Origin: Candidatus Scalindua sp.
GTDB taxonomy: Bacteria; Planctomycetota; Brocadiia; Brocadiales; Scalinduaceae
Direction of reading: 5' to 3'
Length of the DNA stretch: 32,000 nucleotides
NCBI GenBank assembly: GCA_031316235.1
Contig: JALDRA010000001.1
Location: 450,001 to 482,000, forward strand
The position numbers and the translations under genes were made by a program. Below the pieces are notes generated by a model. The model had not been told where the DNA came from. It searched no databases and saw only the letters and a program-made list of their open reading frames with translations. Positions 9,364 through 25,779 of the stretch are shown one piece after another (the first letter of the stretch is position 1; each line of letters begins with the position of its first letter).

Positions 9364-9419
9364 CATTAGCAATTTTTAATCTTTTTTTCACCATATGTTA
9401 ATGTTCAGTATGTTATATA
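9364..9419 (+). promoter_or_regulatory. Phased 4-hexamer module plus -10 box upstream of arnT
   Basis: H1 9364 CATTAG, H2 9375 TTTAAT, H3 9386 TTTCAC, H4 9397 GTTAAT, an 11-nt spacer, then TATATA at 9414-9419. It lies about 150 nt upstream of ATG 9569. Confidence 0.5.
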
Positions 9420-9568
9420 AATATACGTACGAAGTATTCATGGAAATCTCTATCTGGCAGGCACAGGCAGTAGACTCTCAGTTCTTGTATCACAAAGGTA
9501 CCTTCTCGGATTAACTTCGTGAGTTTTCGTCTTATATTTGAAAGTTTCTGTGTTCCGGTAACTTAACT

Positions 9569-11212
9569 ATGAATAAAAAGCTATTGTTCAGTTTATCTCT
9601 ACTATTTCTTCTCTTGTACATGGTACCGCTCAATGTACGCCCTGTTAACACACCGGACGAGACTCGATACGGAGAAATCTCCCGGGAAATGCTGATTACC
9701 GGAGACTTTATTGTTCCCCGGTTGAACGGGCTGAGATATTTTGAAAAACCGGTCCTTGGATACTGGCTGAATGCCGCATCCATGGCTCTGTTCAGCGATA
9801 ATGGTTTTGCTGTTCGTTTCCCATCTGCTCTTGCGGTTGGGCTTACCGCCATGATAATATTTTTACTTGTTCGTCGCTTTCATGGATACGATAAAACCGC
9901 ATTGTTGTCCGCCTTCATCTATATAACATTTATTGTTGTATACGGTGTTGGCACCTTATGCGTGATGGACAGCCTGCTGACTTTTTTCCTGACCGCAGCG
10001 ATGGGCTGTTTTTTTGTTGCCAGCACCAACACGACTGTGAGGAATCGAAACGTGTGGTTATTGCTCTGCGGGGTTTTCTGCGGTGCGGCTTTTCTGACAA
10101 AAGGTTTCCTCGCATTTGCCCTGCTGACGTTGACGGTGATTCCATTCCTGTTGTGGAATAGACGCGGAAGGGATATGTTCACCCTATTGTGGCTTCCTCT
10201 CCTCGCCGCCGTGGCTGTTTCGCTTCCCTGGTGCCTGATGATTGCCTCGCGTGAGCCAGATTTCTGGCGCTATTTTTTCTGGAACGAACATGTACAGCGC
10301 TTTCTCTCGGCAGACTCCAGCATGCATGCTCAGCCGTTCTGGTCCTTGATTCCGGTCTTCCTTGCCGGTGCGTTTCCCTGGATACTGGTCACTCCCATGG
10401 CTATTAGCCAATATAAACGTGAACTTCTCCGTAAACCGCTGATTCGTTTCTCTCTCTGCTGGATGGCTTTTTCGCTGGTGTTCTTTTCGGCTTCTTCAGG
10501 CAAACTAATTGCATATATTCTACCCTGTTTTCCTCCACTGGCAGTGCTTATTGCAATTGGTCTTACCGAATATTTCCGGAGTGGCAGCAAAAGAATGTTC
10601 CACTATTGTACCGTTTTGTCGATTATCATAACGGGCCTGATGGTTACTGCATTGCTTCTCATCGCGTTTACGCCTGCTCTGCACTGGAGGATTTACGGCA
10701 CAGAAGAGGGGCATAAACTGTGGTATTGCGTCTTCGGGGCGGTGTTGTGCCTTGTGATTATGATTAAGACTGTGCGGACACAGGACAGGCTGTGGAAAAC
10801 GGCTACACATGGACTCTCAGCCACCGCCATAATGCTGGTATTTCCTTTCGCTGTGCCGGTAGATAATTTTACCCATGCTGGAATGACAACTTTTCTGGAT
10901 TCTCAGAAAGATCACATAACTACGGATACATTCCTGATATCGGATTACCGAACAGTGCAGGCTGTCTGTTATACTTATAAACGTAAAGACGCCTATCTTT
11001 TTCTCAACAGCGGTGAACTCAGTTACGGGGTGTCCTATCCGGACAGCTCCTGCCGTTCCATCGATACTACCGGCCTGAAAAACCTTCTGCACGAGCGCAA
11101 CCGCCAGGTAGCAATTATCATAAAGGAAACCACGAAGTTAAGAGCCAATCTACCCTGGCCAGAGCCAATATATCAAACTATCTGGAAAGACTACTGGTTT
11201 GCGATATACTAA
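9569..11212 (+). CDS. arnT: Undecaprenyl-phosphate-L-Ara4N:lipid A 4-amino-4-deoxy-L-arabinosyltransferase (ArnT, GT-C/GT83)
   Basis: 547-aa polytopic protein, colinear with E. coli ArnT as I recall it: PDETRYGEISREML (Ec PDETRYAEISREML), LRYFEKPVLGYW (Ec LRYFEKPIAGYW), REPDFWRYFFWNEHVQRF (Ec REPNFWHYFFWVEHIQRF), GELSYGVSYPD (Ec GELKYGLNYPD). Confidence 0.9.
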   Translation: MNKKLLFSLSLLFLLLYMVPLNVRPVNTPDETRYGEISREMLITGDFIVPRLNGLRYFEKPVLGYWLNAASMALFSDNGFAVRFPSALAVGLTAMIIFLLVRRFHGYDKTALLSAFIYITFIVVYGVGTLCVMDSLLTFFLTAAMGCFFVASTNTTVRNRNVWLLLCGVFCGAAFLTKGFLAFALLTLTVIPFLLWNRRGRDMFTLLWLPLLAAVAVSLPWCLMIASREPDFWRYFFWNEHVQRFLSADSSMHAQPFWSLIPVFLAGAFPWILVTPMAISQYKRELLRKPLIRFSLCWMAFSLVFFSASSGKLIAYILPCFPPLAVLIAIGLTEYFRSGSKRMFHYCTVLSIIITGLMVTALLLIAFTPALHWRIYGTEEGHKLWYCVFGAVLCLVIMIKTVRTQDRLWKTATHGLSATAIMLVFPFAVPVDNFTHAGMTTFLDSQKDHITTDTFLISDYRTVQAVCYTYKRKDAYLFLNSGELSYGVSYPDSSCRSIDTTGLKNLLHERNRQVAIIIKETTKLRANLPWPEPIYQTIWKDYWFAIY

Positions 11213-11317
11213 AACCTATTTGGTTTTCGGTTTTACCGGAAACCAAATCCTGGTGAAGGTATACTCGCTCAATTTTATCCCGGATTTAATCCGAAATCCA
11301 GTATGAGATGAGTATAT
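11204..11317 (-). repeat. MITE-like intergenic repeat, copy A (inverted relative to copies B and C)
   Basis: 114 bp. Its reverse complement aligns end to end with 26836-26950 and 21526-21666. It has 7-bp terminal inverted repeats (ATATACT...AGTATAT) and two internal hairpins. Its left terminus (ATATACTAA) contains the last two sense codons and the stop codon of arnT. Confidence 0.8.
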
Positions 11318-11347
11318 ATTAATCAGAACACCGAAAAATATCCGAAG

Positions 11348-11402
11348 CATTACTATTTTTTAATCTATTCTTCATTATGACTTAATGTTTGTTTGTTATA
11401 AT
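11348..11402 (+). promoter_or_regulatory. Phased 4-hexamer module plus -10 box upstream of the cmoA-like gene
   Basis: H1 11348 CATTAC, H2 11359 TTTAAT, H3 11370 CTTCAT, H4 11381 CTTAAT, a 10-nt spacer, then a perfect TATAAT at 11397-11402. It lies about 68 nt upstream of ATG 11470. Confidence 0.55.
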
Positions 11403-11469
11403 GCTCATTTACGGTATGCAGAAGTAGAGGTTTTCTCCTCTCATACATAATTTTTATGCACTGATAGCG

Positions 11470-12216
11470 ATGAATAAAGATACAATTTTTGCAGATAAGA
11501 AAAATAGCATGTCTGACTTTAATTTTGGAAAGGAGACTGCGGCGGTATTTGATGATATGCTTGAAAGATCTGTCCCTTTCTATAACGAAATACAGAGGAT
11601 GTTATGCGAAATAGCGGTGGATTTTGCGGCGGACGGCACTCATGTCTATGATTTAGGGTGCTCCACAGGTACCACCCTTTTAAATATCTGTAAGGCGGTA
11701 AAAAAAGATGTCAGATATATCGGGATAGATTATTCACAAGACATGCTGAACAGGTGCAGAGTAAGGTTTTCTGAAAGCAAGGTAACAAAAGAATACTCTC
11801 TTACCTGCATGGACTTAAACAATGGGATTAATATCACAAACGCATCTGTTGTCATTATGAATCTGACACTGCAGTTTGTGCGTCCTTTGCACAGGGACCA
11901 TATAATAAAGAATATTTATAACGGTTTGTGTGAAAACGGCTGTTTAATCCTCATTGAAAAAGTGCTGGGCAACAACTCTGACTTTAACAGGATGTTCATA
12001 AAATACTACTATGAGATGAAGAAAAGAAATGGATATACTGAACTGGAGATATCACAAAAGAGAGAGGCGTTAGAAAATATTCTCATACCATACCGGTTAG
12101 ATGAGAACAGGGACCTCTTAAAAAAAGCAGGTTTTGACCACTGCGATACGTTCTTCAAATGGTATAACTTTTGTGGTCTGGTAGCATTGAAAAGCAGTTT
12201 GCACTCTCAAAAATAA
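11470..12216 (+). CDS. cmoA: CmoA-like class I SAM-dependent enzyme (carboxy-S-adenosyl-L-methionine synthase homologue)
   Basis: 248 aa, colinear with E. coli CmoA as I recall it: FDDMLERSVPFYNEI (Ec FPDMIQRSVPGYSNI), VYDLGCSTG (Ec VYDLGCSLG), NASVVIMNLTLQF (Ec NASMVVLNFTLQF), NGYTELEISQKREALENI (Ec NGYSELEISQKRSMLENV), KKAGFDH...YNFCGLVALK (Ec HKAGFEH...FNFGSLVALK). No cmoB-like gene is present in the window. Confidence 0.7.
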   Translation: MNKDTIFADKKNSMSDFNFGKETAAVFDDMLERSVPFYNEIQRMLCEIAVDFAADGTHVYDLGCSTGTTLLNICKAVKKDVRYIGIDYSQDMLNRCRVRFSESKVTKEYSLTCMDLNNGINITNASVVIMNLTLQFVRPLHRDHIIKNIYNGLCENGCLILIEKVLGNNSDFNRMFIKYYYEMKKRNGYTELEISQKREALENILIPYRLDENRDLLKKAGFDHCDTFFKWYNFCGLVALKSSLHSQK

Positions 12217-12558
12217 TATGTCTGCTACCCAACCTGGACAGGCCAGAACTAAACAGGAGTTAATAAATAACAAATTTCAAATCACAAACTACAAACAAAT
12301 TCCAATATATGAAATAATATACTAACTTGTTTGTTTTAAAAATAGTTCTTGAGATTTTCTTAATATAAAGAGAAACGTTTTTGGCAGACTGGATTTGTTT
12401 GTGCTTCTAAATCATATTGTTTGGACATTTTGAACTTAATTAATTGGAATTTGTTTGTTATTTGGATTTTATTATTTGGTGCTTGTTAGACGTTCTAAAG
12501 AATTTGTTTTAATAATTTTTTTGACAAAATTGGTTAAAATATTCTTATTAAGAGACTA

Positions 12559-13335
12559 ATGAAGAGCATGAGTGAAATTAAAATACCCTACGGTACAGGC
12601 TTTTTCAGAAAGTCTATGATAAATACCGGCAACATTCTGTTTCGATATAGAAATACGATGTTTTTCATGGTTGGAATCATATTGTTCATCAGCACAAAAC
12701 CAGAATTTATCTTTGAGAGTACGTTTTATGACAATTGTATGGATGTTGCCGGCTTTGCCGTAGCTGTAACCGGACAGATATTGAGGGCTTTGGTGATAGG
12801 CAAAGACTACATCAAAAGAGGAGGAAAAGATAATAAGATGATGGCGAACCGGTTAGTGCAGGGAGGCCTCTTTGCCCATTCCCGTAATCCCCTCTACTTT
12901 GGGAATATCTTGATTATCATTGGCCTGGGTATCATCTATAATTCAGTCTTGGGATATATTACTTCGTATAGTTTCTTCGTCTTTGGATATTTGGCCATTG
13001 TTATGGCTGAGGAAGATTTTCTGAGAACAAAGTTTGGTGTGGAGTACGAGGAATATTGTAAGAGGGTGCCCAGATTTATTCCACGATTTGCCGGAATCAG
13101 AAATACACTGAGTAATGGAGGTTTCGACTGGTTACGTTTCCTAAGGAAGGAATACAACATGATTTGCATATGGGTCGGTAGCGCTATCATTTTAAGGATA
13201 TGGGCAGAGATTCTCCATTTCGGATACGCCGCCAGGAAAAGGGACATATTGGTCATGTCTATATGCCTTATTCCGATTTTAATTTTTTACTGTGTAACAC
13301 GTTATTTGAAAAAAAATAAAAAACTTTCCACGTAG
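12559..13335 (+). CDS. ICMT/PEMT-family integral-membrane methyltransferase (Ste14/LmtA-like)
   Basis: 258-aa protein with multiple TM segments. It carries the family signature LVQGGLFAHSRNPLYFGNILIIIGL followed by AEEDFLRTKFGVEYEEYCKRVPRFIP. Confidence 0.75.
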   Translation: MKSMSEIKIPYGTGFFRKSMINTGNILFRYRNTMFFMVGIILFISTKPEFIFESTFYDNCMDVAGFAVAVTGQILRALVIGKDYIKRGGKDNKMMANRLVQGGLFAHSRNPLYFGNILIIIGLGIIYNSVLGYITSYSFFVFGYLAIVMAEEDFLRTKFGVEYEEYCKRVPRFIPRFAGIRNTLSNGGFDWLRFLRKEYNMICIWVGSAIILRIWAEILHFGYAARKRDILVMSICLIPILIFYCVTRYLKKNKKLST

Positions 13336-13483
13336 GTCCTGCCTGCTCGTCATAATACCAAATTTACTGGTTAATTTTTCGACTGTTATCTCTTATCCTT
13401 CCTGTCACGGAAGAAACATCCACCTGTATTTGTTATAGGTAAGAAGTGGGAGTTTTTCACTCGGTACCAATTAAATTTAAAAA

Positions 13484-14449
13484 ATGAAACAATACAAAAA
13501 ACTCCTGCTCTTATTTTTAACTATAATAATTCTTAGTTGTATTCTTGCTCCTCTCGTAAAAATACCTCTGGATTTTATGTTAGAAAAAGGAGAATTTTTT
13601 GCAGATAGTGTGGACTATGAAAATGGCACATATGATTTTGGCAAGGTAATGAGGCGACTATTAATGCTCGCTGCATTGATAGTGTTTGTGATTTTAAGAA
13701 AGTCTCTGAAAATTTACCCCCTAATGGCTTTAGGCATGAAGCAGAGGTCTGGATGTTTCAGGAAATTTCTTTTTGGCTTCCTAATGGCCATAATTTCGCT
13801 GCTAATTTACTACTCTCTTGCACTGTTTTTCGGTGCATGGATAGTTCACATAGATTATCATTTAGTTGGAATTGTAATATCTAAAATTATCAAATATCTT
13901 TTAGTCGGCTGTCTTATAGGTCTCATTGAAGAGATATTTTTTAGAGGTTTTGTCTTGCAATTCTTTATGAAGGACATGTCCGTAGCAATTGCCGTATGTG
14001 CAACCAGCGCGATTTACTCTGTTCTTCACTTTTTCCAGTCTGAAGTTCTTGTTACCAGAGGGTTTCAGCCATTTGTCGGTTTAATCACTATGTCACATTT
14101 TTTTAAACCTCTTTTTCTTCAATTCATAGAAAACCTGTCTTCAATCATTGGCCTTTTTTTGGTTGGTGTGGTGCTTTCTTATGCATTTCTTCTATCAAAA
14201 TCATTATACCTTTCTATAGGCTTGCACTCAGGATGGGTATTCATGATGAAGGCTGACAGCCTCTTCCTTGTTCGGGTTCGAGAGAAGTATGAGTGGGTTT
14301 TTGGTAATAGTAATCAGTTAGTGACAGGTTTTATTGTATGGGCTTCTCTGATATACGTCTTGTTTATAATAAAGAAGGTTTATCGTAATACTCATAATTC
14401 CGGAGCATATCTCAAATCATCCGATTCAGGCCAGAATTCTTTCAGATGA
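13484..14449 (+). CDS. CPBP-family intramembrane glutamic endopeptidase (CAAX protease / Abi family)
   Basis: 321-aa polytopic protein. Motif 1 is LIEEIFFRGF (EExxxR), motif 2 is SAIYSVLHFF (FxxxH) and motif 3 is IGLHSGWVF (H-containing helix). Confidence 0.75.
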   Translation: MKQYKKLLLLFLTIIILSCILAPLVKIPLDFMLEKGEFFADSVDYENGTYDFGKVMRRLLMLAALIVFVILRKSLKIYPLMALGMKQRSGCFRKFLFGFLMAIISLLIYYSLALFFGAWIVHIDYHLVGIVISKIIKYLLVGCLIGLIEEIFFRGFVLQFFMKDMSVAIAVCATSAIYSVLHFFQSEVLVTRGFQPFVGLITMSHFFKPLFLQFIENLSSIIGLFLVGVVLSYAFLLSKSLYLSIGLHSGWVFMMKADSLFLVRVREKYEWVFGNSNQLVTGFIVWASLIYVLFIIKKVYRNTHNSGAYLKSSDSGQNSFR

Positions 14450-14517
14450 AACACATCTGACGCAAACTTAATTTCGTCAACAACAAGTCTTCTTGTTTAT
14501 CCGCAAAAAAACATCTC

Positions 14518-14572
14518 CATTAACATTTCCTCATCTCCCATTCATCATAACTTAATTTTTAATTGGTATAGT
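14518..14572 (+). promoter_or_regulatory. Phased 4-hexamer module plus -10 box upstream of GT-C paralogue 2
   Basis: H1 14518 CATTAA, H2 14529 CCTCAT, H3 14540 ATTCAT, H4 14551 CTTAAT, a 10-nt spacer, then TATAGT at 14567-14572. It lies about 44 nt upstream of ATG 14616. Confidence 0.55.
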
Positions 14573-14615
14573 ATGAAACTTATTTAACCTATTGATTTAT
14601 TCCTGTTTCTAGTAA

Positions 14616-16406
14616 ATGGCAAAACTTCAATCTATCTGTCCTGACAAGCGAAGCAGAGATCTTGTTATTCTGTTCGTAGGTGGTTTACTCGTGTATTTTA
14701 TGAACATTGGTTCCCTTCCGTTATCTCATTCCGAAGACCGTTGGGGTGAGATTGCAAGGGAAATGGAGCTTTCAAATAATTGGTATACCCCGACGATAAA
14801 TGGAGAAATTTATTGGGACAAACCAATCTTATCTTATTGGGCGATCCTTGGCGTTAAAAAGATCATCGGGAGTCCTCAGCTCAGCGAATGGATAATTCGT
14901 TTTCCGACTCTTCTGGCCAGCTTCCTCATTCCATTCCTTATGTATGATCTTACCTCTTTTTTCTTTAACCGCAAGATTGGTCTAACCGGCGCTTTGATAA
15001 TCTTAACATCCTTTCAAATGTATCAGATTGGACGTGTGGCATCCTCGGACATGTTGAACCTGCTACTTTTTCTGACATCACTTTGGATCTATTTTAAGAC
15101 CGTTCAGAAAAACCGTGGTTTCTGGTGGTGGTTGCTGCTGGGCTTTATTATAGGAGTCAATTGCCATATCAAAGGGTTGATTGGAGTGCTTCCGTATCTG
15201 GTTATCTTGAGTCACAGGATTTTCAGCCATGGTTTCAAATCTCTCTCCCGGGAATTCTTATTCCGTTTTTCTCTAAGTACCTTCCTGGCAGGGACTATTT
15301 ATCTGGGTATGTGGTGCTGGATACTTGGAGATGTAATCAATACAATAAGCGGAATATATACCTATCTGATCTCTGGTTCGGCGGATGCTCTACCTTTACC
15401 GTTACGCATGGTTATACAGGAAAATCTAAACAGAGTTGCTACTGATTCAATAGACCATAAGAATCCTCCATGGATTTATCTGGAAGCGCCCTTCTCTTTT
15501 CTATTTCCCTGGTCTCTCTTTTTACCGGGTGCATTGGTCACATGGTGGCGGGACAGAAAAATGACAAAGGATAAAAAAGAACCATTCGGGATCTGGTTTT
15601 TTTCTCTCCTCATCTTTTTCTCCTTAATGTCTTCAAGAAGGCCGTATTATCTTTTACCGGCCATACCAGCTGCTGCGGTTCTTATTGCCGTGCATATCCA
15701 TCTGCTGATTAAATGTGATGAAACCAGCGGCATATCCGGCAACTTAAGAAAAAGAAGTGTGTTCATATACGGACTTTTACTGACATGTCTGGTTTTCACT
15801 ATGGGAGCCTTGCTTATTTTTGTTTCCGGTTCTGTTCCTGAGAGACTCAATTCTGTCTATTTGTATCCGTCGGGCATAGCTTCTTTTGTTATTGGAGGAA
15901 CGCTTTTGGTTGTTGCCGTAAAGAAGAGTTTTTCTACGGTAATTAATACCTTCACCGTTTTTTTAATTCTTCTTATTATTGTCGTAAACTTAAGTCTTCC
16001 GGATATCGGAAATAATTCTACTTTCAGAGAATTTACGAAAATAGTGAATGAGAAAACTTTAAACAAAAGAGTTGTTCTTTTTCTAGTAGATAACGCCAAA
16101 CTTATATACGGACTGGAGCATCCACCTTATCCATGTGTTCCTTCTGAGGTAAATGCATCTCCGGAAGAGTCAGTGAGACAACTTGTCGAAGAAACTGCTC
16201 CTGGTGATTTTGTTTTGTTAGAAAAGAGAAACCTTTCCCTTCTTTCAAGATTGAATTATGAACTCATACTTGAGGAACTACCCAATCCCTCCTACCTGAA
16301 GATGGAATGGAAAAACGGACCAAAAATTATTCCCAACGAAAACCATATCAAGAAGAAAACATTACTCTTATTACGTATTCTTAACCATGACTCCCAAAAG
16401 AAATAG
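14616..16406 (+). CDS. ArnT/PMT-family GT-C glycosyltransferase (paralogue 2, acceptor unknown)
   Basis: 596-aa polytopic protein. The first periplasmic loop, HSEDRWGEIAREMELSNNWYTP...IYWDKPILSYW, reproduces the ArnT/PMT_2 D-E-x-R...E-I-x-R-E and [FW][ED]KP motifs. It has a soluble C-terminal domain of about 130 aa. Confidence 0.8.
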   Translation: MAKLQSICPDKRSRDLVILFVGGLLVYFMNIGSLPLSHSEDRWGEIAREMELSNNWYTPTINGEIYWDKPILSYWAILGVKKIIGSPQLSEWIIRFPTLLASFLIPFLMYDLTSFFFNRKIGLTGALIILTSFQMYQIGRVASSDMLNLLLFLTSLWIYFKTVQKNRGFWWWLLLGFIIGVNCHIKGLIGVLPYLVILSHRIFSHGFKSLSREFLFRFSLSTFLAGTIYLGMWCWILGDVINTISGIYTYLISGSADALPLPLRMVIQENLNRVATDSIDHKNPPWIYLEAPFSFLFPWSLFLPGALVTWWRDRKMTKDKKEPFGIWFFSLLIFFSLMSSRRPYYLLPAIPAAAVLIAVHIHLLIKCDETSGISGNLRKRSVFIYGLLLTCLVFTMGALLIFVSGSVPERLNSVYLYPSGIASFVIGGTLLVVAVKKSFSTVINTFTVFLILLIIVVNLSLPDIGNNSTFREFTKIVNEKTLNKRVVLFLVDNAKLIYGLEHPPYPCVPSEVNASPEESVRQLVEETAPGDFVLLEKRNLSLLSRLNYELILEELPNPSYLKMEWKNGPKIIPNENHIKKKTLLLLRILNHDSQKK

Positions 16407-16419
16407 GAAACTAATTGCC

Positions 16420-16571
16420 ATGAAAAAAAAGGAGTGGTCGGTTTATCTTTCCAGTTTCTTTTGTTGTACATAGCGCCACTGAATGCATGTTTTGTTGCTG
16501 CACCTGATGAAATGCGATACGGAGAGATAGCCCGGGAATTGCCTGAGAGAAAAGCTACACAAATTGATTAA
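16420..16571 (+). pseudogene. Frameshifted 5' remnant of an arnT-type gene
   Basis: ATG 16420 gives MKKKEWSVYLSSFFCCT*. Shifting one frame from about 16449 gives ...FLLLYIAPLNACFVAAPDEMRYGEIARELPERKATQID* (stop 16569-16571). Compare arnT (9569): MNKKLLFSLSLLFLLLYMVPLNVRPVNTPDETRYGEISREML. Only about 45 N-terminal codons survive. Confidence 0.7.
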
Positions 16572-16682
16572 GGTACATCAATTCTGGAGCAATCCTCAAA
16601 TCACCAGGGTTAGCATAAGATTATCATCCCCGCAAACGCTGTATCACCATTCATTTCATACATCCAGGTTACATAAGTTTCA

Positions 16683-16738
16683 CATTAATACAATTTAATT
16701 ACACTATCATCTTCTCTTAATGTTGCTTTTGATAGACT
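16683..16738 (+). promoter_or_regulatory. Phased 4-hexamer module plus -10 box upstream of GT-C paralogue 3
   Basis: H1 16683 CATTAA, H2 16694 TTTAAT, H3 16705 TATCAT, H4 16716 CTTAAT, an 11-nt spacer, then TAGACT at 16733-16738. Confidence 0.5.
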
Positions 16739-18523: not shown

Positions 18524-18524
18524 C

Positions 18525-18602
18525 CATTAACATATCTTAATCTTTCCTTCATAATTTATTAACCTTTGCTTCACCATTTCTTAATGCTTGACTTTATATA
18601 CT
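18525..18602 (+). promoter_or_regulatory. Extended phased hexamer array plus -10 box upstream of GT-C paralogue 4
   Basis: 18525 CATTAA, 18536 CTTAAT, 18547 CTTCAT, (18558 ATTAAC), 18569 CTTCAC, 18580 CTTAAT, all on an 11-bp register. The -10 box is TATATA at 18595-18600 or TATACT at 18597-18602. The array starts 2 bp after the stop of the upstream paralogue. Confidence 0.5.
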
Positions 18603-18722
18603 TTGCATACATACTGGGTAATTGTACTGCAGGCCTGCCTGTGCCTGGTAGTAAGTCGTCTGGCAGGTGCCACCGTAACCATTAGATGAGTATCACTCCG
18701 TAAAGAGGGTACTTTACAATAA

Positions 18723-20351: not shown

Positions 20352-20354
20352 CAT

Positions 20355-21521
20355 ATGACCAGAAATAGTTTTCTCCCATTTTCAAGACCAGACATCGGCC
20401 AGGCAGAGATTAACGAAGTTGTCAGGGTTCTCTCCTCCGGATGGATAACCTCCGGCCCAAAAGCAGCATCCTTTGAGAAGGCATTTGCAGAATATGTCGG
20501 CTGCCCCTACGCATTGGCCCTGACCTCCTGCACTGCAGGCCTCCATCTGGCGATGGAAATAGTCGATCTGCAGCCTGGTGATGAAGTAATCACTACCTCT
20601 CTCACCTGGCCGGCAACCGTAAATATGATTCACCTGTGTGGAGGGAGACCGGTATTTGTTGATGTGGAACGGGAGACCTTCAATCTCGATGTGTCACAGG
20701 TTGAAAAAGCCGTTACGAAACGGACAAGGGCAATCCTCCCGGTTCACTTTGCCGGTCAGGCTTGTGAACTTGAAAAACTCAGGGAGATTTGTAAAGGTCA
20801 CGGTATCGTGTTAATCGAAGATGCTGCCCATGCCATTGGCAGTGAGTACAAGGGAAAGCGAATTGGTTCCGGGGACAATATGGCAGTTTTCAGCTTTCAC
20901 CCTATCAAGAACATGACTACCGGAGAAGGCGGCATGATCACAACACACGACGAAGAGACCTATGAAAGGCTTCGTCTCTTACGGTTCCACGGAGTTGATA
21001 AAGACGCATGGAAGCGGTATGGCAGCGCCGAAAAGGAAGGCTATGATCTGATAATTCCGGGGTGGAAGTACAATATGACCGACATTCAGGCTGCGCTGGG
21101 TCTCGTTCAATTGGAGCGCCTGGATACAATGATCGAAAAGCGCATGACGCTGGCCTCGCTGTATGATGATCTGCTCATGGAAGTAGAAGGGATAACACGT
21201 CCCCGCAGGGTCCTCTACGATATAAGACACTCCTGGCACCTCTATACGATACTGGTGGACAAGGAGAAAGCAGGGATATCACGTGATGAATTCATGCAGG
21301 AGATGAAGAAACGGAACATAGGAACTGGTATTCATTTTCTTGCCGTTCACCAGTTATCGTTTTACCGAAAGCATTATCCCTTACCTGACGGTTCGCTGCC
21401 GGAAACCGTATTTATATCAGAAAGAGTCGTTTCCCTTCCACTCTATTCCGGTATGAATGAAAGTGATGTACACGACGTAGTTGCAGCAATCAGGGATATA
21501 ATTGAGAAATTCGGAAAATGA
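20355..21521 (+). CDS. arnB: UDP-4-amino-4-deoxy-L-arabinose--oxoglutarate aminotransferase (DegT/DnrJ/EryC1 family)
   Basis: 388 aa. SFLPFSRPDIGQAEINEVVRVLSSGWITSGPK matches E. coli ArnB [32 protein letters not shown] as recalled. VFSFHPIKNMTTGEGG contains the PLP-lysine motif. Confidence 0.9.
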   Translation: MTRNSFLPFSRPDIGQAEINEVVRVLSSGWITSGPKAASFEKAFAEYVGCPYALALTSCTAGLHLAMEIVDLQPGDEVITTSLTWPATVNMIHLCGGRPVFVDVERETFNLDVSQVEKAVTKRTRAILPVHFAGQACELEKLREICKGHGIVLIEDAAHAIGSEYKGKRIGSGDNMAVFSFHPIKNMTTGEGGMITTHDEETYERLRLLRFHGVDKDAWKRYGSAEKEGYDLIIPGWKYNMTDIQAALGLVQLERLDTMIEKRMTLASLYDDLLMEVEGITRPRRVLYDIRHSWHLYTILVDKEKAGISRDEFMQEMKKRNIGTGIHFLAVHQLSFYRKHYPLPDGSLPETVFISERVVSLPLYSGMNESDVHDVVAAIRDIIEKFGK

Positions 21522-21525
21522 GTAT

Positions 21526-21666
21526 GTATCCTCATCTCATAATGGTTTTCGGATAAAATCCGAGATAAAATTGAGCGAGTAAGGCCCTCGGCGTTTTTTG
21601 TCCGGGGATACCTTCACCAGGATTTGGTTTCCGGTAAAACCGAAAACCAAATCGGTTTTAGTATAT
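21526..21666 (+). repeat. MITE-like intergenic repeat, copy B (carries a ~27-bp internal insertion)
   Basis: It aligns with copy C and with the reverse complement of copy A. The left end is degenerate (GTATCCT versus ATATACT). An extra segment, AGGCCCTCGGCGTTTTTTGTCCGGGGA, sits between GAGCGAGTA and TACCTTCACC. The copy lies in the 274-bp gap between arnB and arnC. Confidence 0.8.
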
Positions 21667-21801
21667 GATGTTTTAAGAGATATCCCATTGCCGGTAAACG
21701 GTAATTACCTGAATATCTGCGCATTGAGGTTGAGAGGATGAGATCAGTTTTACTATGTTCATGGCAGATGTTTGCTTTCGGGAAAGGAATGAGCGTTGTT
21801 A

Positions 21802-22758
21802 ATGGAAAATAAAATACCTTATCTTTCAGTAGTGGTACCTGTATTTAATGAGGAAAAGAATATCAGGGAACTTGCAGAACGTCTGAATATGGCCTTGAAG
21901 GATGTGGGACGTCTTTATGAAATACTATTCATCGATGATGGAAGTTCTGATAATTCACTCAAAATCCTCAAGCACTGCCAGACTGAGATTCCCGGCATAA
22001 CGATAATAGAATTCAACCGGAATTATGGGCAGCATGCCGCTATTTTTGCCGGATTTGAAAAAAGTTCAGGAGAGATAGTTGTAACGCTGGATGCCGATCT
22101 TCAAAATCCTCCGGAAGAGATCCCGAAACTTTTAAACAAGGCGGAGGAGGGATTCGAAGTCGTTGCAACTGTGCGTACAAATCGTAAAGATTCAATTTTC
22201 AGAAGGGGTGCCTCTTATGTAATAAACAGGATCACGGCAAAAATTACCGGTGTCAATCTTAAGGATTACGGCTGTATGTTACGGGCATATAGAAGAAACA
22301 TAGTTCAACTGATGTGCGAATCAAAGGAAATCTCAACTTTTATTCCCGTCCTCGCCACATCATATGCCAAGAATACGACCGAAATCGAGGTGAAACATGA
22401 TCCGCGTCGCGGTGATGAGACAAAATACAGCCTTACCCGTCTTATCTCGCTCCAATTTGATCTCATGACCAGTTTCTCAATCTGGCCGCTGAGGATGCTC
22501 ATGCTTGTTGGACTCGTGGTTTCACTGGCAGGAGTTGGTTTCGGTGTTTTCCTCCTCGCGGTAAGAATAATTATGGGAAGTGAATGGGCAGCCGAGGGTG
22601 TTTTTACCCTCTTTGCCGTACTCTTTTTCTTCGTGGGCGGGCAGTTTCTCGCCTTTGGCCTTCTCGGAGAATACATTGGAAGAATCTACTCCGAGGTGAG
22701 GAGAAGACCGAGGTTTGTAATCGAGAATGTACACACAAAGGAGAAAAATAAGGAATGA
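21802..22758 (+). CDS. arnC: Undecaprenyl-phosphate 4-deoxy-4-formamido-L-arabinose transferase (GT2)
   Basis: LSVVVPVFNEE..YEILFIDDGSSDNS..NRNYGQHAAIFAGF..TLDADLQNPPEEIPKLL..DYGCMLRAYRR..WAAEGVFTLFAVLFFFVGGQF..GEYIGRIYSEVRRRPRF is colinear with E. coli ArnC as recalled. The track start 21796 is TTG; the first ATG is 21802. Confidence 0.9.
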   Translation: MENKIPYLSVVVPVFNEEKNIRELAERLNMALKDVGRLYEILFIDDGSSDNSLKILKHCQTEIPGITIIEFNRNYGQHAAIFAGFEKSSGEIVVTLDADLQNPPEEIPKLLNKAEEGFEVVATVRTNRKDSIFRRGASYVINRITAKITGVNLKDYGCMLRAYRRNIVQLMCESKEISTFIPVLATSYAKNTTEIEVKHDPRRGDETKYSLTRLISLQFDLMTSFSIWPLRMLMLVGLVVSLAGVGFGVFLLAVRIIMGSEWAAEGVFTLFAVLFFFVGGQFLAFGLLGEYIGRIYSEVRRRPRFVIENVHTKEKNKE

Positions 22759-23678
22759 GGATCATTGTAATGGGGTATCACGCTATTGGATGCCGATGTC
22801 TTAAATATCTCATAGAGGAGAAAGAGCATATAGTGGCAATCTTCACTCACAAAGATAATCCCGGTGAGAACCTGTTCTTTGATTCGATGACTGAACTCGC
22901 CCGATTGCATGGTATCCCCTGCTACATGCCGGAACATATCAATACCCATGAGTGGATATCACTGATAGAAGGGCTTTCTCCCGACGTCATATTCTCGTTT
23001 TACTACCGTAATTTAGTTTCTCGGCAAATCCTTGATATCCCGAGGCTCGGAGCCATAAATCTCCACGGTTCACTTCTCCCAGAATACAGGGGGCGCTGCC
23101 CCGTTAACTGGGTGCTGGTAAATGGAGAGAAAGAGACAGGGGTTACCCTTCATTATATGGTGGAAAAAGCTGATGCCGGTGACATCATTGCACAAAGGAA
23201 AATTCCTGTTTTATTCGATGATACCGCCTATAGTCTTTACAAAAAAACGGAGAAGGAGGCCGTAACAATTCTTGATGAAACATTGCCACTGATAAAAAAG
23301 GGAAAAAACAACAGGATACCGCAGGATCTGTCACGCGGTACGTATTTCGGAGGAAGAAAACCTGATGACGGAAGGATACACTGGGAAAGGAAGAATTCTG
23401 AAATCTATAACCTTGTAAGGGCGGTAACCCACCCCTGGCCGGGTGCCTTCTGCTTTTTCAGAGAGAAGAAGGTCTTTATCTGGCAATGTCTGCCTTTATC
23501 TGTCAATGGTCATCACAAACCTGGTAATTTGATCTCTTTTGATAAGGAGGGAATAATTGCAGCTGCCGGCAAAGGGACACTATTATTGAAAAGATGTCAG
23601 ATAGAGGGAGAAGAAGAAAAAAGCGGTTATGAATTTGCCCAGACATATGTTCTCCGTGAAGGAGAAATGTTTACTTAG
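22755..23678 (+). CDS. arnA: UDP-L-Ara4N formyltransferase (stand-alone homologue of the ArnA N-terminal domain)
   Basis: 307 aa. [46 protein letters not shown] matches E. coli ArnA [46 protein letters not shown] as recalled. The start overlaps the arnC stop (ATGA at 22755-22758). Confidence 0.85.
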   Translation: [307 protein letters not shown]

Positions 23679-23713
23679 TGTCGGGAAGATAACTGTCCAT
23701 CTACTGCGTTATG

Positions 23714-23769
23714 GTAATAATTCCGTAATCCTCACGTACTTGAGTACGTTCCGGTTACACAATTATTAC
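23714..23769. other. 56-nt imperfect nested hairpin in the spacer between the two arnA halves
   Basis: GTAATAATT (23714-23722) pairs with AATTATTAC (23761-23769). GTAA (23725-23728) pairs with TTAC (23755-23758). ACGTAC (23734-23739) pairs with GTACGT (23744-23749) around a TTGA loop. Confidence 0.5.
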
Positions 23770-23848
23770 ACGCCTTGTCCCTGGGCAGTTCTCGTCCAAA
23801 CACCGGGTTTCTATTCAAGCACTACTTAGCATTTAAAAGGAGAAAAAA

Positions 23849-24901
23849 ATGAAGATTCTTATTTTAGGCGTAAACGGTTTTATTGGACATAGTCTTGTCA
23901 ATCGGATTTTAGAATTAACTGACTGGAAAGTATTTGGCATGGATCTGTCATCTTCGAAGCTGACAGATTCAATACACAATTCACGATTCCACTTTATTGA
24001 AGGTGATATCTCTATCCACAGGGAGTGGGTTGAGTATCACATCAAAAAGTGCGATGTGATTCTTCCCCTTGTAGCCATTGCAACACCTGCTCATTATGTT
24101 AAAGAACCGCTTCGGGTTTTTGAGCTTGGTTTTGAAGAAAACCTCCGCATCGTTCGCCTGTGTGTGAAATACGGCAAAAGAATCCTGTTTCCATCGACTT
24201 CTGAAGTATATGGTATGTGTGACGAACCAGAATTTTCGGAGGAGACGAGCAACTTTGTACTTGGCCCCATAAAGAAGCAGCGGTGGATTTACTCATGCGC
24301 AAAACAGCTTCTTGACAGAGTCATCTGGGCATACGGGTCTGAAGGAAGGCTGGATTTTACCCTTTTCAGGCCCTTCAACTGGATAGGCCCAAGGCTTGAT
24401 GACATCGATGCCGCCAAAGAAGGCAGTTCCAGGGTAGTAACACAGTTCATTATAAATATTGTGATGAACGAGCCGCTCAGACTGGTTGATGGGGGAATGC
24501 AGAAAAGATGCTTTACGTATATAGATGACGGGATAGATTGCTTAATGAAGATTATTGAAAACAGAAATAGCGTGTGCAGCGGAGAGATTTTCAACATCGG
24601 TAACCCGAATAACGATTGCAGTATGAGGGAGCTTGCTGAGAGACTGCTTGATTTGTACAGGAAACATCCTGAAACAGAGGCGTATGCAAGTACCTCTCGA
24701 ATCCTTAACGTAAATTCGAATGAGTACTATGGTGAGGGATACCAGGATATCGTTGCAAGGAAACCCTCGATAAAAAAGGCTCAGGAGCTCTTAGGATGGG
24801 AACCTCAGATAAACCTGGACAAAGCTCTTGAAAATACTCTTGATTTCTTTATCGAGGAAAGCAAGGTAAATGGTTTGATATGCGCATCTACAGCCATTTA
24901 A
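23849..24901 (+). CDS. arnA: UDP-glucuronate oxidative decarboxylase (stand-alone homologue of the ArnA C-terminal SDR domain)
   Basis: 350 aa. MKILILGVNGFIGHSLVNRILE is the Rossmann GxxGxxG motif (Ec ArnA RVLILGVNGFIGNHL). The catalytic YSCAKQ (YxxxK) is present. An AAAGGAG RBS precedes ATG 23849. Confidence 0.85.
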   Translation: MKILILGVNGFIGHSLVNRILELTDWKVFGMDLSSSKLTDSIHNSRFHFIEGDISIHREWVEYHIKKCDVILPLVAIATPAHYVKEPLRVFELGFEENLRIVRLCVKYGKRILFPSTSEVYGMCDEPEFSEETSNFVLGPIKKQRWIYSCAKQLLDRVIWAYGSEGRLDFTLFRPFNWIGPRLDDIDAAKEGSSRVVTQFIINIVMNEPLRLVDGGMQKRCFTYIDDGIDCLMKIIENRNSVCSGEIFNIGNPNNDCSMRELAERLLDLYRKHPETEAYASTSRILNVNSNEYYGEGYQDIVARKPSIKKAQELLGWEPQINLDKALENTLDFFIEESKVNGLICASTAI

Positions 24902-25779
24902 TATCACTAAAAATTGATGTGGACACTTATCGTGGCATGGAAAAGGGTGTTCCTGTGCTCCTGGATATTCTCCGAAGCCATGATATAAAGGCATCCTTCT
25001 TTCTCTCGTTTGGTCCTGATAACTCTGGAAAAGCGATATGGAACATATTTCGAAAGAAGGGGTTTCTCTCAAAGATGGTGAGGACCGGTGCCCCCCGCCT
25101 CTATGGCCTGAAGACGATGCTTTACGGGACACTGCTTTCCGCCCCCCTTATAGCTTCTGCATTTCCGGATCTTACGAGGCAGATAGCTGAAGAGGGGCAC
25201 GAAATAGGCATCCATGCCTGGGATCACAGGCTATGGCAGGACAACCTCGATAAGCTCTCAGAAAGAAAGATCAGTGAAGAATTCGAAAAGTCATTCAGTT
25301 CATTCAAAAATATCCTGGGAATTACCCCGAAAGCAACCGCAGCGCCTGCCTGGTCCTGCAATTCCCGGAGTCTTAAGATCCAGGATTCATTAGGTCTCGA
25401 TTACTCAAGCGATACAAGAGGAGTATTGCCTTTCTATCCACGTTGTAATGGCCAGGTATTTAAGACACTCCAGATACCAACAAACCAGCCATGTATTGAG
25501 GAATTGATTGGCCTTGATTTTGTAAATAGTGACAATCTGGTTGAATACCAGGTTTCCCTCCTGAAACAATACATACAGAATGTGATTACAATTCACGCGG
25601 AAGTGGAGGGTGGAATATATAAAGAACAATTTGACCAATTTGTCAGAAAAACAATTTGCAAAGGTTACCGGTTCTGCCCTTTGAATTCAATTGCTGCAGA
25701 CTTTCATGGTGCCCCGGCAAGGAGCCTAGAGCACGGTCATCTTCCAGGAAGGAGCGGGAGAGTGGCAATTTCCTCCTGA
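24880..25779 (+). CDS. arnD: 4-deoxy-4-formamido-L-arabinose-phosphoundecaprenol deformylase (polysaccharide deacetylase fold)
   Basis: 299 aa. LKIDVDTYRGMEKGVPVLLDILRSHDIKASFFLSFGPDN matches E. coli ArnD [39 protein letters not shown] as recalled. ...ITIHAEVEGG... matches Ec YTIHAEVEG. It overlaps the preceding gene by 22 nt. Confidence 0.85.
   Translation: MRIYSHLISLKIDVDTYRGMEKGVPVLLDILRSHDIKASFFLSFGPDNSGKAIWNIFRKKGFLSKMVRTGAPRLYGLKTMLYGTLLSAPLIASAFPDLTRQIAEEGHEIGIHAWDHRLWQDNLDKLSERKISEEFEKSFSSFKNILGITPKATAAPAWSCNSRSLKIQDSLGLDYSSDTRGVLPFYPRCNGQVFKTLQIPTNQPCIEELIGLDFVNSDNLVEYQVSLLKQYIQNVITIHAEVEGGIYKEQFDQFVRKTICKGYRFCPLNSIAADFHGAPARSLEHGHLPGRSGRVAISS

Follow-up and report, generated by a model that had tools for sequence, protein, structure and literature searches.

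A candidate two-component regulon of Candidatus Scalindua that may join RND efflux, the Ara4N pathway and a carboxy-SAM-dependent membrane carboxymethyltransferase

In enterobacteria, the genes for modifying lipid A with aminoarabinose (Ara4N) form a single operon (arnBCADTEF or pmrHFIJKLM) that is controlled by the two-component system (TCS) PmrAB (BasRS) from CTTAAT-type half-sites that lie 5 bp apart and replace the -35 element. The Rhizobium Rgt system (RgtA-D/RgtE) contains several GT83-type GT-C enzymes that share one polyprenyl-phosphate-sugar donor supplied by an ArnC-like GT2 and place the sugar, galacturonic acid, at different positions of lipid A and the core. LmtA from Leptospira interrogans is a lipid A 1-phosphate O-methyltransferase that uses SAM, and we know of no CmoA partner reported for it. 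In the pairs CmoA/CmoB, TglE/TglF, MccS/MccB-CTD and phage CmoA/CmoX, a CmoA-type synthase is encoded beside a dedicated transferase, often with translational coupling, so that the transferase has its own source of a rare cofactor. The transferases of these pairs are soluble Rossmann-fold enzymes that act on tRNA, a peptide, a nucleotide antibiotic or DNA.

We compared these systems with a 32,000-nucleotide stretch of DNA (the window) from Candidatus Scalindua, a marine anammox planctomycete. We estimate at about one in two the probability that the window holds the regulon of a single TCS, which would comprise RND efflux, the Ara4N pathway and a carboxy-SAM (Cx-SAM)-using pair formed by cmoA and an ICMT-like carboxymethyltransferase gene (Table 1). 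An initial annotation had described an envelope-decoration island with the Arn enzymes, three additional GT-C transferases and a CmoA/ICMT/CPBP trio. That interpretation is partly supported. Profile matches confirmed the identities of arnT, arnB, arnC, both arnA genes, arnD, the three GT-C genes and the CmoA, ICMT/LmtA-like and CPBP genes, all of which lie on one strand as proposed, and the promoter module and synteny also held up. The trio did not, and the idea of separate chemistries probably needs revision. In the literature searched we found no description of this combination, as the annotation had supposed, and none of a CmoA-ICMT pairing.

Table 1. Genes and promoter modules in the window
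Feature	Coordinates	Strand	Basis
Promoter module, RND efflux operon	704-742	+	Repeat family D3, motif scan, geometry; outside the interval annotated initially
RND efflux operon	834-6520	+	Outer-membrane factor 834-2165; membrane-fusion protein 2181-3449; permease 3434-6520
Promoter module, TCS	6640-6678	+	Repeat family D3, motif scan, geometry
OmpR/PhoB-family response regulator	6737-7474	+	Pfam Response_reg, Trans_reg_C; TIGR01387 279.6 (cutoff 279.2)
Sensor histidine kinase	7446-8888	+	TIGR01386 308.9 (cutoff 292.6); transmembrane segments
Promoter module, arnT	9364-9402	+	Repeat family D3, motif scan, geometry
ArnT-like lipid A Ara4N transferase (GT-C, GT83)	9569-11212	+	NF009784 486 bits, full length
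Promoter module, cmoA	11348-11386	+	Repeat family D3, motif scan, geometry
CmoA-type Cx-SAM synthase	11470-12216	+	TIGR00740 244.6 (cutoff 193.3)
ICMT/PEMT-fold, LmtA-like integral membrane transferase	12559-13335	+	PF04191; LmtA_Leptospira 86.6 bits, full length, best NCBIfam match
CPBP (Rce1-like) intramembrane protease	13484-14449	+	PF02517; EEIFFR and YSVLH motifs
Promoter module, GT-C1	14518-14556	+	Repeat family D3, motif scan, geometry
GT-C paralogue 1 (ArnT family)	14616-16406	+	PMT_2; NF009784 116 bits; ArnT-type motif
Promoter module, GT-C2	16683-16721	+	Motif geometry; slightly degenerate, weaker
GT-C paralogue 2	16784-18523	+	PMT_2; ArnT-type motif
Promoter module, GT-C3-arnB	18547-18585	+	Repeat, motif; extended form 18525-18585 with six phased hexamers
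GT-C paralogue 3	18723-20351	+	PMT_2; ArnT-type motif; repeats D1/D2/D9
ArnB-like UDP-Ara4O aminotransferase	20355-21521	+	NF008658 456 bits, best match
ArnC-like undecaprenyl-phosphate Ara4FN transferase (GT2)	21796-22758	+	NF007986 411 bits, best match
Stand-alone ArnA-type formyltransferase (ArnA-FT)	22755-23678	+	NF005414 344 (cutoff 316)
Stand-alone ArnA-type UDP-GlcA decarboxylating dehydrogenase (ArnA-DH)	23849-24901	+	NF008872 563 (cutoff 294)
ArnD-like deformylase	24880-25779	+	NF011923 248 bits, best match

The arn genes and their PmrAB-like logic are ordinary. As in enterobacteria, there are best-match homologues for ArnB, ArnC, ArnA-FT, ArnA-DH, ArnD and ArnT, and control appears to be of the OmpR/PhoB type with the same kind of half-sites. 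By contrast with the enterobacterial system, ArnA is split into two genes, the flippase gene arnE/F was not found at this locus, there are four ArnT-family paralogues rather than one and several promoter units rather than a single operon, the TCS is of the CusRS/CzcRS type by score, and the host is an anammox planctomycete. The ArnT-like protein matched the C. metallidurans ArnT structure 5EZM (E 1e-32) and contains the motif PDETRYGEISREM, with the pattern PDExRYxEISREM. The ArnT-type N-terminal motif is kept in all three additional GT-C (PMT_2) proteins, the third of which is encoded by a tandem duplicate of the second (71-80% nucleotide identity). The several ArnT-family paralogues resemble the Rgt and other multi-GT-C systems, although they are presumably not orthologous to the Rgt proteins. 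The four enzymes probably move an undecaprenyl-phosphate-linked sugar onto different acceptor positions.

Repeat grouping of the window yielded a family (D3) with seven copies of a 46-nt unit. The motif TTCAYN6TTMAY had nine matches where 1.04 were expected, and none of 100 shuffles reached nine. All nine were on the + strand and eight were inside promoter regions. The promoter module is genuine rather than a chance pattern. It consists of CATTAA / TTTAAT / CTTCAT / CTTAAT hexamers in an 11-bp phase, followed after 10-12 nt by a TATAAT-like -10 box, and its geometry relative to this box is identical at all seven promoters. The PmrA box matches it in the sequence of the half-sites, in their spacing and in taking the place of the -35 element (PMC3973317; PMC10570014). 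The module precedes the five units that had been assigned to it (arnT, cmoA, GT-C1, GT-C2 and GT-C3-arnB) as well as the adjacent TCS, which suggests that the five are co-regulated by this TCS and that the TCS regulates itself. The regulon had been drawn too narrowly, since the module extends it upstream to the RND operon (704-6520). The motif scan of the window found no separate module at the ICMT, CPBP, arnC and arnA dehydrogenase genes. Co-regulation of arnC-arnA-FT and arnA-DH-arnD would hinge on read-through, which is uncertain given intergenic gaps of 148-342 nt, some with repeat elements.

The TCS scores as CusRS/CzcRS-type and not as a PmrAB orthologue, with the PmrA and PmrB models giving 197 bits (cutoff 330) and 168 bits (cutoff 314). 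The periplasmic domain of the histidine kinase is acidic and about 135 residues long, and inspection of its sequence revealed no His, no Cys and no obvious metal ligands. In the RND operon, Pfam OEP and HlyD were matched, and the permease scored 601 bits with the CusA/CzcA model TIGR00914, below its cutoff of 701, and has a TM4 motif with an AcrB-like DD pair. We propose that the phosphorylated regulator binds head-to-tail (C/A)TT(C/A)AT hexamers with an 11-bp spacing. As at promoters that depend on PmrA, the hexamer nearest the promoter would substitute for the -35 element. The bound regulator would activate the RND efflux operon, the TCS itself, the full Ara4N pathway with its split ArnA and four ArnT-family GT-C enzymes, and the cmoA-ICMT-like pair.

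The initial annotation had made its reading depend on conservation of the block, and we found the association of TCS, CmoA, ICMT, GT-C and arnB/C/A/D genes kept in further Scalindua as well as in Brocadia, a distant genus of anammox bacteria. The order in Brocadia is response regulator and histidine kinase (HK), motif, CmoA-ICMT, two GT-C genes, arnB, arnC, arnA-FT, arnA-DH and arnD. A two-half-site motif lies directly after the orthologous HK and before a LAB_N or chorismate mutase gene and CmoA-ICMT in Brocadia (L039, L040, L030), and Acidobacteriota (L025, L032) have the same arrangement. This motif was found at four of 15 TCS-adjacent loci and at two of the 58 remaining ones, where chance alone would give 0.011 matches per upstream region.

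Could this be an ordinary PmrAB/arn locus for resistance to cationic peptides or metals that has acquired unrelated genes? CmoA would then be the housekeeping enzyme for cmo5U in tRNA, and the ICMT-like protein would be an ordinary LmtA-like enzyme that adds a methyl group (+14 Da) from SAM to lipid A. The CmoA-like protein scores above the cutoff of the equivalog model for tRNA CmoA, and some Acidobacteria and Verrucomicrobia reportedly carry CmoB orthologues (PMC4482062). The ICMT-like protein keeps the SAM-binding core motifs RNPxY and EE...FG..Y, and to our knowledge all characterised members of the ICMT/PEMT/LmtA/MddA superfamily use SAM. We nevertheless consider this improbable. At 73 of 80 loci CmoA is encoded immediately before the ICMT-like gene and in the same orientation; four of the seven exceptions are at contig edges, so that the pair is present at 73 of 76 informative loci. 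These span at least ten phyla (Planctomycetota, Acidobacteriota, Eisenbacteria, Nitrospirota, Delta-, Beta- and Gammaproteobacteria, Binatia, Verrucomicrobiota, Gemmatimonadota, Bacteroidota and Methylomirabilales), and the stop and start codons often overlap. Where the tRNA pathway is known, cmoA and cmoB are neighbors, whereas CmoB never adjoins this pair, and the 1.25 Mb of DNA flanking the pair loci contained no CmoB homologue. Prephenate, the co-substrate of CmoA, is the product of chorismate mutase. At ten loci, and also at L025, a gene for this enzyme, with or without fused DAHP synthase, directly precedes the pair on the same strand. The Scalindua cmoA gene also has its own TCS-type promoter. 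At most pair loci arn genes are not nearby.

The CmoA protein matched 4GEK and 1IM8 over its full length and conserves Arg199, Lys198, Gln136 and Phe137. Arg199, the sole side chain that contacts the carboxylate of Cx-SAM (PMC4482062), was present in 74 of 77 proteins. The AF2 model of the ICMT-like protein (pLDDT 85) had the ICMT structures 4A2N and 5V7P as top fold matches. Among characterised families, LmtA gave the top score with each of the 26 subfamily members tested and aligned nearly full-length over about 250 residues. LmtA and the subfamily share the ICMT-type membrane fold, and both occur in diderm bacteria. The subfamily scores of 87-110 bits are far under the LmtA cutoff of 325.

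CPBP does not belong with this pair. It adjoins it only in four Scalinduaceae loci (L001, L002, L006, L008), is absent from about 70 pair loci outside this family, and is an add-on limited to Scalinduaceae. In eukaryotic CAAX processing Rce1 trims the protein and ICMT then modifies the C-terminus, and by analogy CPBP, which keeps the EExxxR and YxxxH motifs, could trim a lipidated envelope protein whose new C-terminus the ICMT-like enzyme would esterify or alkylate. The restricted distribution of CPBP makes this highly improbable, as does similarity to ICMT proper that is limited to an 80-residue core, and the neighborhood contains neither a prenyltransferase gene nor one for a candidate substrate. 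Detoxification is also a very unlikely role. In this reading the ICMT-like enzyme would be co-induced with the RND pump and would alkylate some small volatile or hydrophobic compound, much as MddA methylates methanethiol. An RND pump does adjoin in the window and at L004, L025 and L044, and 15 of the 26 subfamily members weakly matched the MddA model, but MddA scores far below LmtA and LPS-type genes (GT-C, GT2, LAB_N) recur next to the pair in several phyla.

These patterns lead us to favor the reading that the ICMT-like protein is a Cx-SAM-dependent integral-membrane carboxymethyltransferase. CmoA would convert SAM and prephenate to Cx-SAM, and the LmtA-like enzyme would use it to carboxymethylate (+58 Da) a lipid on the cytoplasmic side of the inner membrane. 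The +14 Da and +58 Da modifications that had been proposed as separate are more likely a single pathway, since the ICMT-like enzyme would be fed by CmoA. Compared with CmoA/CmoB-type pairs, the partner is a polytopic membrane protein of the ICMT fold, a membrane lipid is expected to accept the group, and at about ten loci the operon also includes chorismate mutase. Comparison of paired and unpaired homologues identified no Cx-SAM-specific residues in the ICMT-like protein; unpaired homologues retain all invariant residues and so offer no natural contrast for cofactor specificity.

With LmtA as the nearest relative of characterised function, our best guess for the acceptor is a phosphate of lipid A. 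Carboxymethylation of a phosphate leaves the net negative charge unlowered, which counts against a fit with Ara4N, and the absence of any LPS genes from most pair loci also weighs against the proposed scheme. Alternatively, Cx-SAM may be used on the amine of Und-P-Ara4N or another polyprenyl-phosphate amino sugar, or on a bulk phospholipid such as phosphatidylethanolamine. With the sugar amine, an N-carboxymethyl zwitterionic sugar would form after deformylation by ArnD and be transferred by the GT-C paralogues. Consistent with this, Brocadia and other Planctomycetota (L030, L036, L039, L040, L047) have aminotransferase-GT2-LAB_N-CmoA-ICMT-GT-C operons, two GT-C genes flank the pair in a deltaproteobacterium (L016), and the Pfam match is to the PEMT family, members of which N-alkylate lipid amines. 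We regard these other acceptors as rather unlikely, given that neither a GT2 nor a GT-C gene lies within 10 kb at about three quarters of loci and that the best full-length match throughout the subfamily is a phosphate O-methyltransferase. If the ICMT-like enzyme does use Cx-SAM, lipid carboxymethylation would represent an envelope modification of a new type.

The initial annotation described a sensor-controlled envelope island at 9364-25779, with canonical Arn enzymes, additional GT-C transferases, a CmoA-like enzyme, an ICMT-like membrane enzyme and a CPBP protease on one strand. The ICMT-like protein is 100% identical to one from a Candidatus Scalindua sp. assembly, which places the window in a marine anammox planctomycete (Brocadiia). 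By ORF listing and Pfam/NCBIfam searches we found all of these genes, and all are on the plus strand. Homologues of ArnB, ArnC, ArnA-FT, ArnA-DH, ArnD and ArnT are present in one locus (arnA is split into formyltransferase, FT, and dehydrogenase, DH, genes), and the top NCBIfam match of each is the corresponding Arn model over its full length. Curated NCBIfam cutoffs were exceeded by ArnA-FT (344 > 316) and ArnA-DH (563 > 294). Equivalog cutoffs were missed by ArnB (456 versus 631), ArnC (411 versus 529), ArnD (248 versus 382) and ArnT (486 versus 567). Because calibration of these cutoffs was on Enterobacteria, whereas the host is a planctomycete, the four proteins are still likely, if unproven, orthologues of the Arn enzymes. 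We found no small membrane ORF suitable as an ArnE or ArnF flippase subunit within 8800-26700. A related Scalindua has a 321-aa LPG_synthase_TM gene between arnB and arnC, which may encode a flippase.

Coordinates of features in the window and in loci (L numbers) retrieved from other genomes around relatives of the ICMT-like gene
Feature	Location	Strand	Remarks
RND efflux operon	834-6520		upstream of the arn/GT-C interval
RND permease	3434-6520		
OmpR-type regulator and histidine kinase	6737-8888		upstream of the arn/GT-C interval
Flavodiiron protein gene, C-terminal remnant	8891-9145		
ArnT	9569-11212	+	NCBIfam best match
CmoA-type enzyme	11470-12216	+	TIGR00740 (CmoA equivalog model), 244.6 > 193.3 cutoff
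Spacer before ICMT-like gene	12217-12558		342 nt
Imperfect inverted repeat (53 nt) in this spacer	12261-12313 / 12436-12488		
ICMT/PEMT-fold membrane protein	12559-13335	+	top NCBIfam match: Leptospira lipid A 1-phosphate methyltransferase LmtA
CPBP/Rce1-like protease	13484-14449	+	PF02517, 51.6 > 22.4 cutoff
GT-C1 (ArnT family)	14616-16406	+	
arnT-like N-terminus remnant	16425-16571		in GT-C1/GT-C2 spacer
GT-C2 (ArnT family)	16784-18523	+	
GT-C3 (ArnT family)	18723-20351	+	
ArnB, ArnC, stand-alone ArnA formyltransferase, stand-alone ArnA dehydrogenase, ArnD	20355-25779 jointly	+	
Spacer between arnA-FT and arnA-DH	23679-23848		170 nt
Two-hairpin repeat	11203-11319	-	
Two-hairpin repeat	21524-21666	+	
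Two-hairpin repeat	26836-26951	+	
Two-hairpin repeat, L002	9813-9980, 13295-13438		
LAB_N small gene, L030	8801-9127		
LAB_N small gene, L036	5932-6288		
LAB_N small gene, L039 and L040	8903-9265		
LAB_N small gene, L047	3921-4283		
GT-C, CmoA, ICMT, GT-C, L016	942-5386		
Two GT-C genes and ICMT-like gene, L046	4419-8108		

In the window, the exact site of the LPG_synthase_TM gene is occupied by a copy of an intergenic repeat of approximately 116-143 nt that is common to Scalindua genomes, contains two hairpins and resembles a MITE or REP element. One copy of this repeat separates cmoA from the ICMT gene in the Scalindua locus L002. Two spacers in the window are unusually long compared with those in another Scalindua, L008: the one before the ICMT-like gene (versus 53 nt) and the one between arnA-FT and arnA-DH (versus 24 nt). 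The former is AT-rich and contains the inverted repeat, and the latter holds a palindrome (CACGTACTTGAGTACGT).

The ArnT N-terminal signature (DExRxxEIxRE...EKPPLxYW) is kept in all four GT-C proteins, the first of which, ArnT, aligned with the solved structure of C. metallidurans ArnT (E 1e-32). A repeat search of the window identified GT-C2 and GT-C3 as tandem duplicates. The arnT-like remnant between GT-C1 and GT-C2 has approximately 70% nucleotide identity to 9575-9692 and encodes ...APDEMRYGEIARE... with a premature stop, which is evidence of repeated GT-C gene duplication and decay. Four ArnT paralogues are unusual, though not without precedent.

The same repeat search grouped seven copies of a 46-nt unit. 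Alignment of the seven promoters on the proximal hexamer showed four hexamers in an 11-bp phase (CATTAA, TTTAAT, CTTCAT, CTTAAT) with a TATAAT-like -10 box 10-12 nt further on in all seven, so that the last hexamer takes the -35 position. The pattern TTCAYN6TTMAY occurs nine times in the window versus 1.04 expected, a count reached by none of 100 shuffles; all nine occurrences are on the plus strand and eight are promoter-proximal. The module is upstream of arnT, cmoA, GT-C1, GT-C2 and GT-C3-arnB, the five units inside the interval previously credited with it. It is also upstream of the RND operon and of the two-component system (TCS), and the predicted regulon therefore reaches further upstream than first described. 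The ICMT-like gene, the CPBP gene, arnC and arnA-DH have no module of their own. Consensus scans of the window did no better than on shuffled sequence for promoters (41 versus 38.8) or terminators (23 versus 15.1) and are thus uninformative on operon boundaries and on read-through into the genes that lack a module.

PmrA-dependent promoters are described as having CTTAAT or CTTAAG half-sites 5 bp apart, arranged head to tail, that replace the -35 element (PMC3973317; PMC10570014). The PmrA box is defined as direct-repeat YTTAAK half-sites 5 bp apart that overlap or replace the -35 (PMC3973317). The seven promoters resemble those of the PmrA/PmrB regulon in having CTTCAT-N5-CTTAAT 10-12 nt upstream of the -10 box. 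By contrast, the regulator scored 196.7 against a cutoff of 330 for the PmrA model and the kinase scored 168.3 against 314 for PmrB; their top matches are the heavy-metal TCS subfamilies TIGR01387 and TIGR01386. We looked for metal specificity in the TM4 motif of the RND permease and in the periplasmic domain of the kinase and found no clear sign of a metal signal. The periplasmic domain, approximately 135 residues long, is acidic and contains neither His nor Cys. The best family of the permease is CusA/CzcA (601 bits, below the 701 cutoff) and its TM4 has an AcrB-type Asp-Asp pair; its substrate class is ambiguous. Next to the kinase gene is the flavodiiron remnant, most of that gene having been deleted; it has 75% protein identity to an intact 405-aa gene downstream of the kinase gene in L002. 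The PmrA-like promoter logic, like the Arn pathway, is of a known kind.

We searched an alignment of the ICMT-like subfamily against 185,579 species, one genome each, and obtained 349 relatives. The best 80 of these 349 loci were retrieved and searched by tblastn with the window proteins. In 73 of these 80 loci the ICMT-like gene directly follows a CmoA-like gene in the same orientation, and in four of the seven exceptions the ICMT-like gene is at a contig edge. Cultured carriers include Parapedobacter lycopersici KACC 18788 and Planctomycetales bacterium ZRK34. Carriers of the pair are found in Planctomycetota, Acidobacteriota, Eisenbacteria, Nitrospirota, Delta-, Beta- and Gammaproteobacteria, Binatia, Verrucomicrobiota, Gemmatimonadota, Bacteroidota and Methylomirabilales. 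The arn genes are absent from most of the pair loci among the best 80 of 349. The CmoA-ICMT pair is the conserved core. Spacing between the two genes was taken from ORFs and is biased by the use of the first possible start codon, so their overlap stands qualitatively only.

Outside the Planctomycetota, the pair in L016 (Deltaproteobacteria) is also located between two ArnT-family GT-C genes, and in L046 (Binatia) two GT-C genes accompany the ICMT-like gene on a contig with no CmoA. The pair is also present on short contigs binned to an archaeon (L026, 'Methanoperedens' MAG) and an actinobacterium (L073, 'Bifidobacterium' MAG); all other named carriers belong to diderm phyla, so these assignments are probably binning errors. 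In Brocadia and other Planctomycetota, a LAB_N protein of approximately 110-120 aa is encoded between an ArnC-like GT2 gene and cmoA. It could be a flippase or an accessory subunit, and it has no counterpart in the window.

When flanking ORFs were counted, the gene most often found upstream of the pair encoded a type II chorismate mutase, in many cases as a fusion with DAHP synthase. In 10 loci (L013, L020, L021, L053, L055, L057, L058, L065, L074, L078) it directly precedes CmoA in the same orientation, and L025 also has it upstream of CmoA. It usually overlaps the start of CmoA by 3 nt, and the result is a three-gene operon in which chorismate mutase would supply prephenate, CmoA would synthesize carboxy-SAM (Cx-SAM) and the ICMT-like protein would be the membrane transferase. 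The product of chorismate mutase, prephenate, is the co-substrate of CmoA. Its presence in these loci is indirect support for the prediction that the CmoA-like protein makes Cx-SAM from SAM and prephenate.

CmoA-like proteins from different phyla share 50-66% identity, and the window protein aligned over its whole length with E. coli CmoA (4GEK) and H. influenzae YecO. The window protein and 74 of 77 ICMT-linked homologues retain Arg199, the only side chain touching the Cx-SAM carboxylate (PMC4482062); Lys198, Gln136 and Phe137 are kept in all 77. Organisms with the known tRNA cmo5U pathway have cmoA and cmoB as neighbours (PMC4482062). With E. coli CmoB as the tblastn query, neither the window nor the 86 loci (1.25 Mb) gave a match at E < 1e-3. 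A divergent class I methyltransferase, 31-38% identical to CmoA and with Ala or Lys in place of Arg199, is encoded ahead of the ICMT-like gene in L059 and L083 (both Massilia) and in L085. This protein might be a synthase of another SAM analogue or an ordinary methyltransferase.

The LmtA model (TIGR04571) is the best match of the ICMT-like protein over its full length, yet the score is 86.6 versus a cutoff of 325. LmtA was likewise the top model for all 26 subfamily members tested, nearly full length and far below the cutoff. The curated ICMT family score was also missed (NF040696, 38.3 versus 160), and phmmer aligned 4A2N (E 9e-5) with residues 96-176 only, the 80-residue cofactor core. A confident AlphaFold2 model of the protein (pLDDT 85.3, pTM 0.82) had as its top Foldseek matches 4A2N (Ma-ICMT) and 5V7P (eukaryotic ICMT) at TM 0.30-0.39, followed by sterol reductases of the same superfamily, all at low TM-scores. 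This fold search confirmed only an ICMT-superfamily core at TM 0.3-0.4 and returned no close solved structure; judged by the phmmer alignment and these fold matches, the protein has an ICMT membrane fold with a C-terminal cofactor-binding core. Since similarity to ICMT is limited to the core and the LmtA scores are below the cutoff, the protein is an orthologue of neither enzyme, LmtA being its closest characterised relative as judged by sequence. Comparison with unpaired homologues identified no residues specific for Cx-SAM. The ICMT-like proteins that have no adjacent CmoA (L031, L046, L082) or follow the divergent methyltransferase (L059, L083, L085) keep all invariant residues and thus offer no clue to such residues. 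The invariant Arg31, Arg76, Arg87, Arg109 and Arg172 are candidate partners of the Cx-SAM carboxylate. An Rfam scan of the window, including the spacer before the ICMT-like gene for a SAM element, detected no riboswitch or other family at the gathering score.

The CPBP protein has EEIFFR at residue 149 and YSVLH at 178-182, and its third motif is HSGWV, with no Asn or Asp (expected EExxxR, FxxxH and HxxxN). All three genes of the proposed CmoA/ICMT/CPBP trio are in the window, but among the retrieved loci the CPBP gene adjoins the ICMT-like gene in Scalinduaceae only. This makes it probable that the likeness to CAAX processing by Rce1 and ICMT in eukaryotes is a coincidence; at most it is lineage-specific.

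The initial annotation had proposed synteny as a check on its hypothesis, and the gene order of the larger block held in other Scalindua and in Brocadia. Three Scalindua loci (L002, L003, L007) have the order RND, regulator-kinase, cmoA, ICMT, CPBP, GT-C, GT-C, arnB, arnC, arnA-FT. L008 is rearranged (GT-C, arnB, arnC, arnA, arnD, arnT, cmoA, ICMT, CPBP, GT-C, GT-C). Three species of Brocadia, which belongs to another anammox family, have a compact single-strand cluster (L030, L039, L040) with the order regulator-kinase, (GT2), LAB_N, CmoA, ICMT, GT-C, GT-C, ArnB, ArnC, ArnA-FT, ArnA-DH, ArnD. Directly 3' of their kinase gene the motif occurs with two half-sites and a TATAAT after them. In these loci and in two from Acidobacteriota (L025, L032), TTCAT-N6-TTCAT follows the stop codon of the kinase gene and precedes (LAB_N or chorismate mutase)-CmoA-ICMT. 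An orthologous TCS adjoins the pair in approximately 15 loci (regulator identity 40-53%). Of 15 TCS-adjacent loci, 4 have the strict motif upstream of cmoA, versus 2 of 58 others (Fisher p = 0.014), with a background expectation of 0.011 per upstream region. It is thus enriched upstream of cmoA and is mainly a feature of anammox bacteria and Acidobacteriota. We rejected it as a universal feature of the pair, as only 6 of 73 loci have it upstream of cmoA. Its distribution beside TCS-linked pairs makes the cmoA-ICMT pair look like an ancestral target of this sensor family.

The adjacency of the pair, the CmoA residues, the upstream chorismate mutase and the lack of CmoB matches together suggest that CmoA would supply Cx-SAM to the ICMT-like membrane enzyme. 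The two would parallel the known pairs CmoA/CmoB, TglE/TglF, MccS/MccB and phage CmoA/CmoX (PMC10491745; PMC12783734). We give roughly even odds (about 0.5) that the pair, often with chorismate mutase, is a widespread undescribed pathway that places a carboxymethyl group from Cx-SAM on lipid A or another envelope lipid, and that in anammox bacteria and some Acidobacteriota a dedicated envelope-stress TCS controls it together with Ara4N addition. By analogy, our best guess for the acceptor is a lipid A phosphate because the nearest characterised relative is LmtA, the named carriers come from diderm phyla, LAB_N (a Pfam lipid A biosynthesis domain) recurs beside the pair, and GT2 and GT-C genes recur beside it in several phyla. 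A polyprenyl-phosphate amino sugar or PE are serious alternatives to lipid A phosphate as acceptor. The genes and promoter module first noticed are confirmed, and the integrated hypothesis built on them is partly supported; its functions are predicted by sequence, by synteny and by likeness to known families. What is new is the module of CmoA and an LmtA-like protein, with or without chorismate mutase, which spans phyla and predicts Cx-SAM-dependent lipid carboxymethylation. In open-access and bioRxiv full text we found no paper that links CmoA or Cx-SAM to ICMT, Ste14, LmtA or lipids, nor any that deals with arn genes in anammox bacteria. An apparent mention of 'CmoA' in a Coxiella lipid A paper was rejected, as the text meant the culture medium cMoAb.

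Carboxy-SAM is a rare cofactor with tRNA, a RiPP thiol, a nucleotide antibiotic and phage DNA as proven acceptors. If the proposed pathway is correct, it would be the first lipid-directed use of Cx-SAM, extending this chemistry to lipids by a membrane-embedded transferase, and the first case of an ICMT-fold enzyme whose cofactor is not SAM. The list of lipid A and envelope modifications would gain a new entry (+58 Da) that provides a carboxylate handle. A role would also be assigned to a conserved gene pair whose present annotation is 'hypothetical' or 'methyltransferase family' and which at least 349 species-level genomes from environmentally important phyla carry. E. coli has Cx-SAM of its own, which makes the hypothesis directly testable. 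To our knowledge, little has been learnt so far about the chemistry of the anammox envelope. In anammox bacteria the locus predicts that LPS is remodelled inducibly and at several sites, which could affect how the cells aggregate, bind metals and resist cationic compounds in reactors and oxygen-minimum zones.
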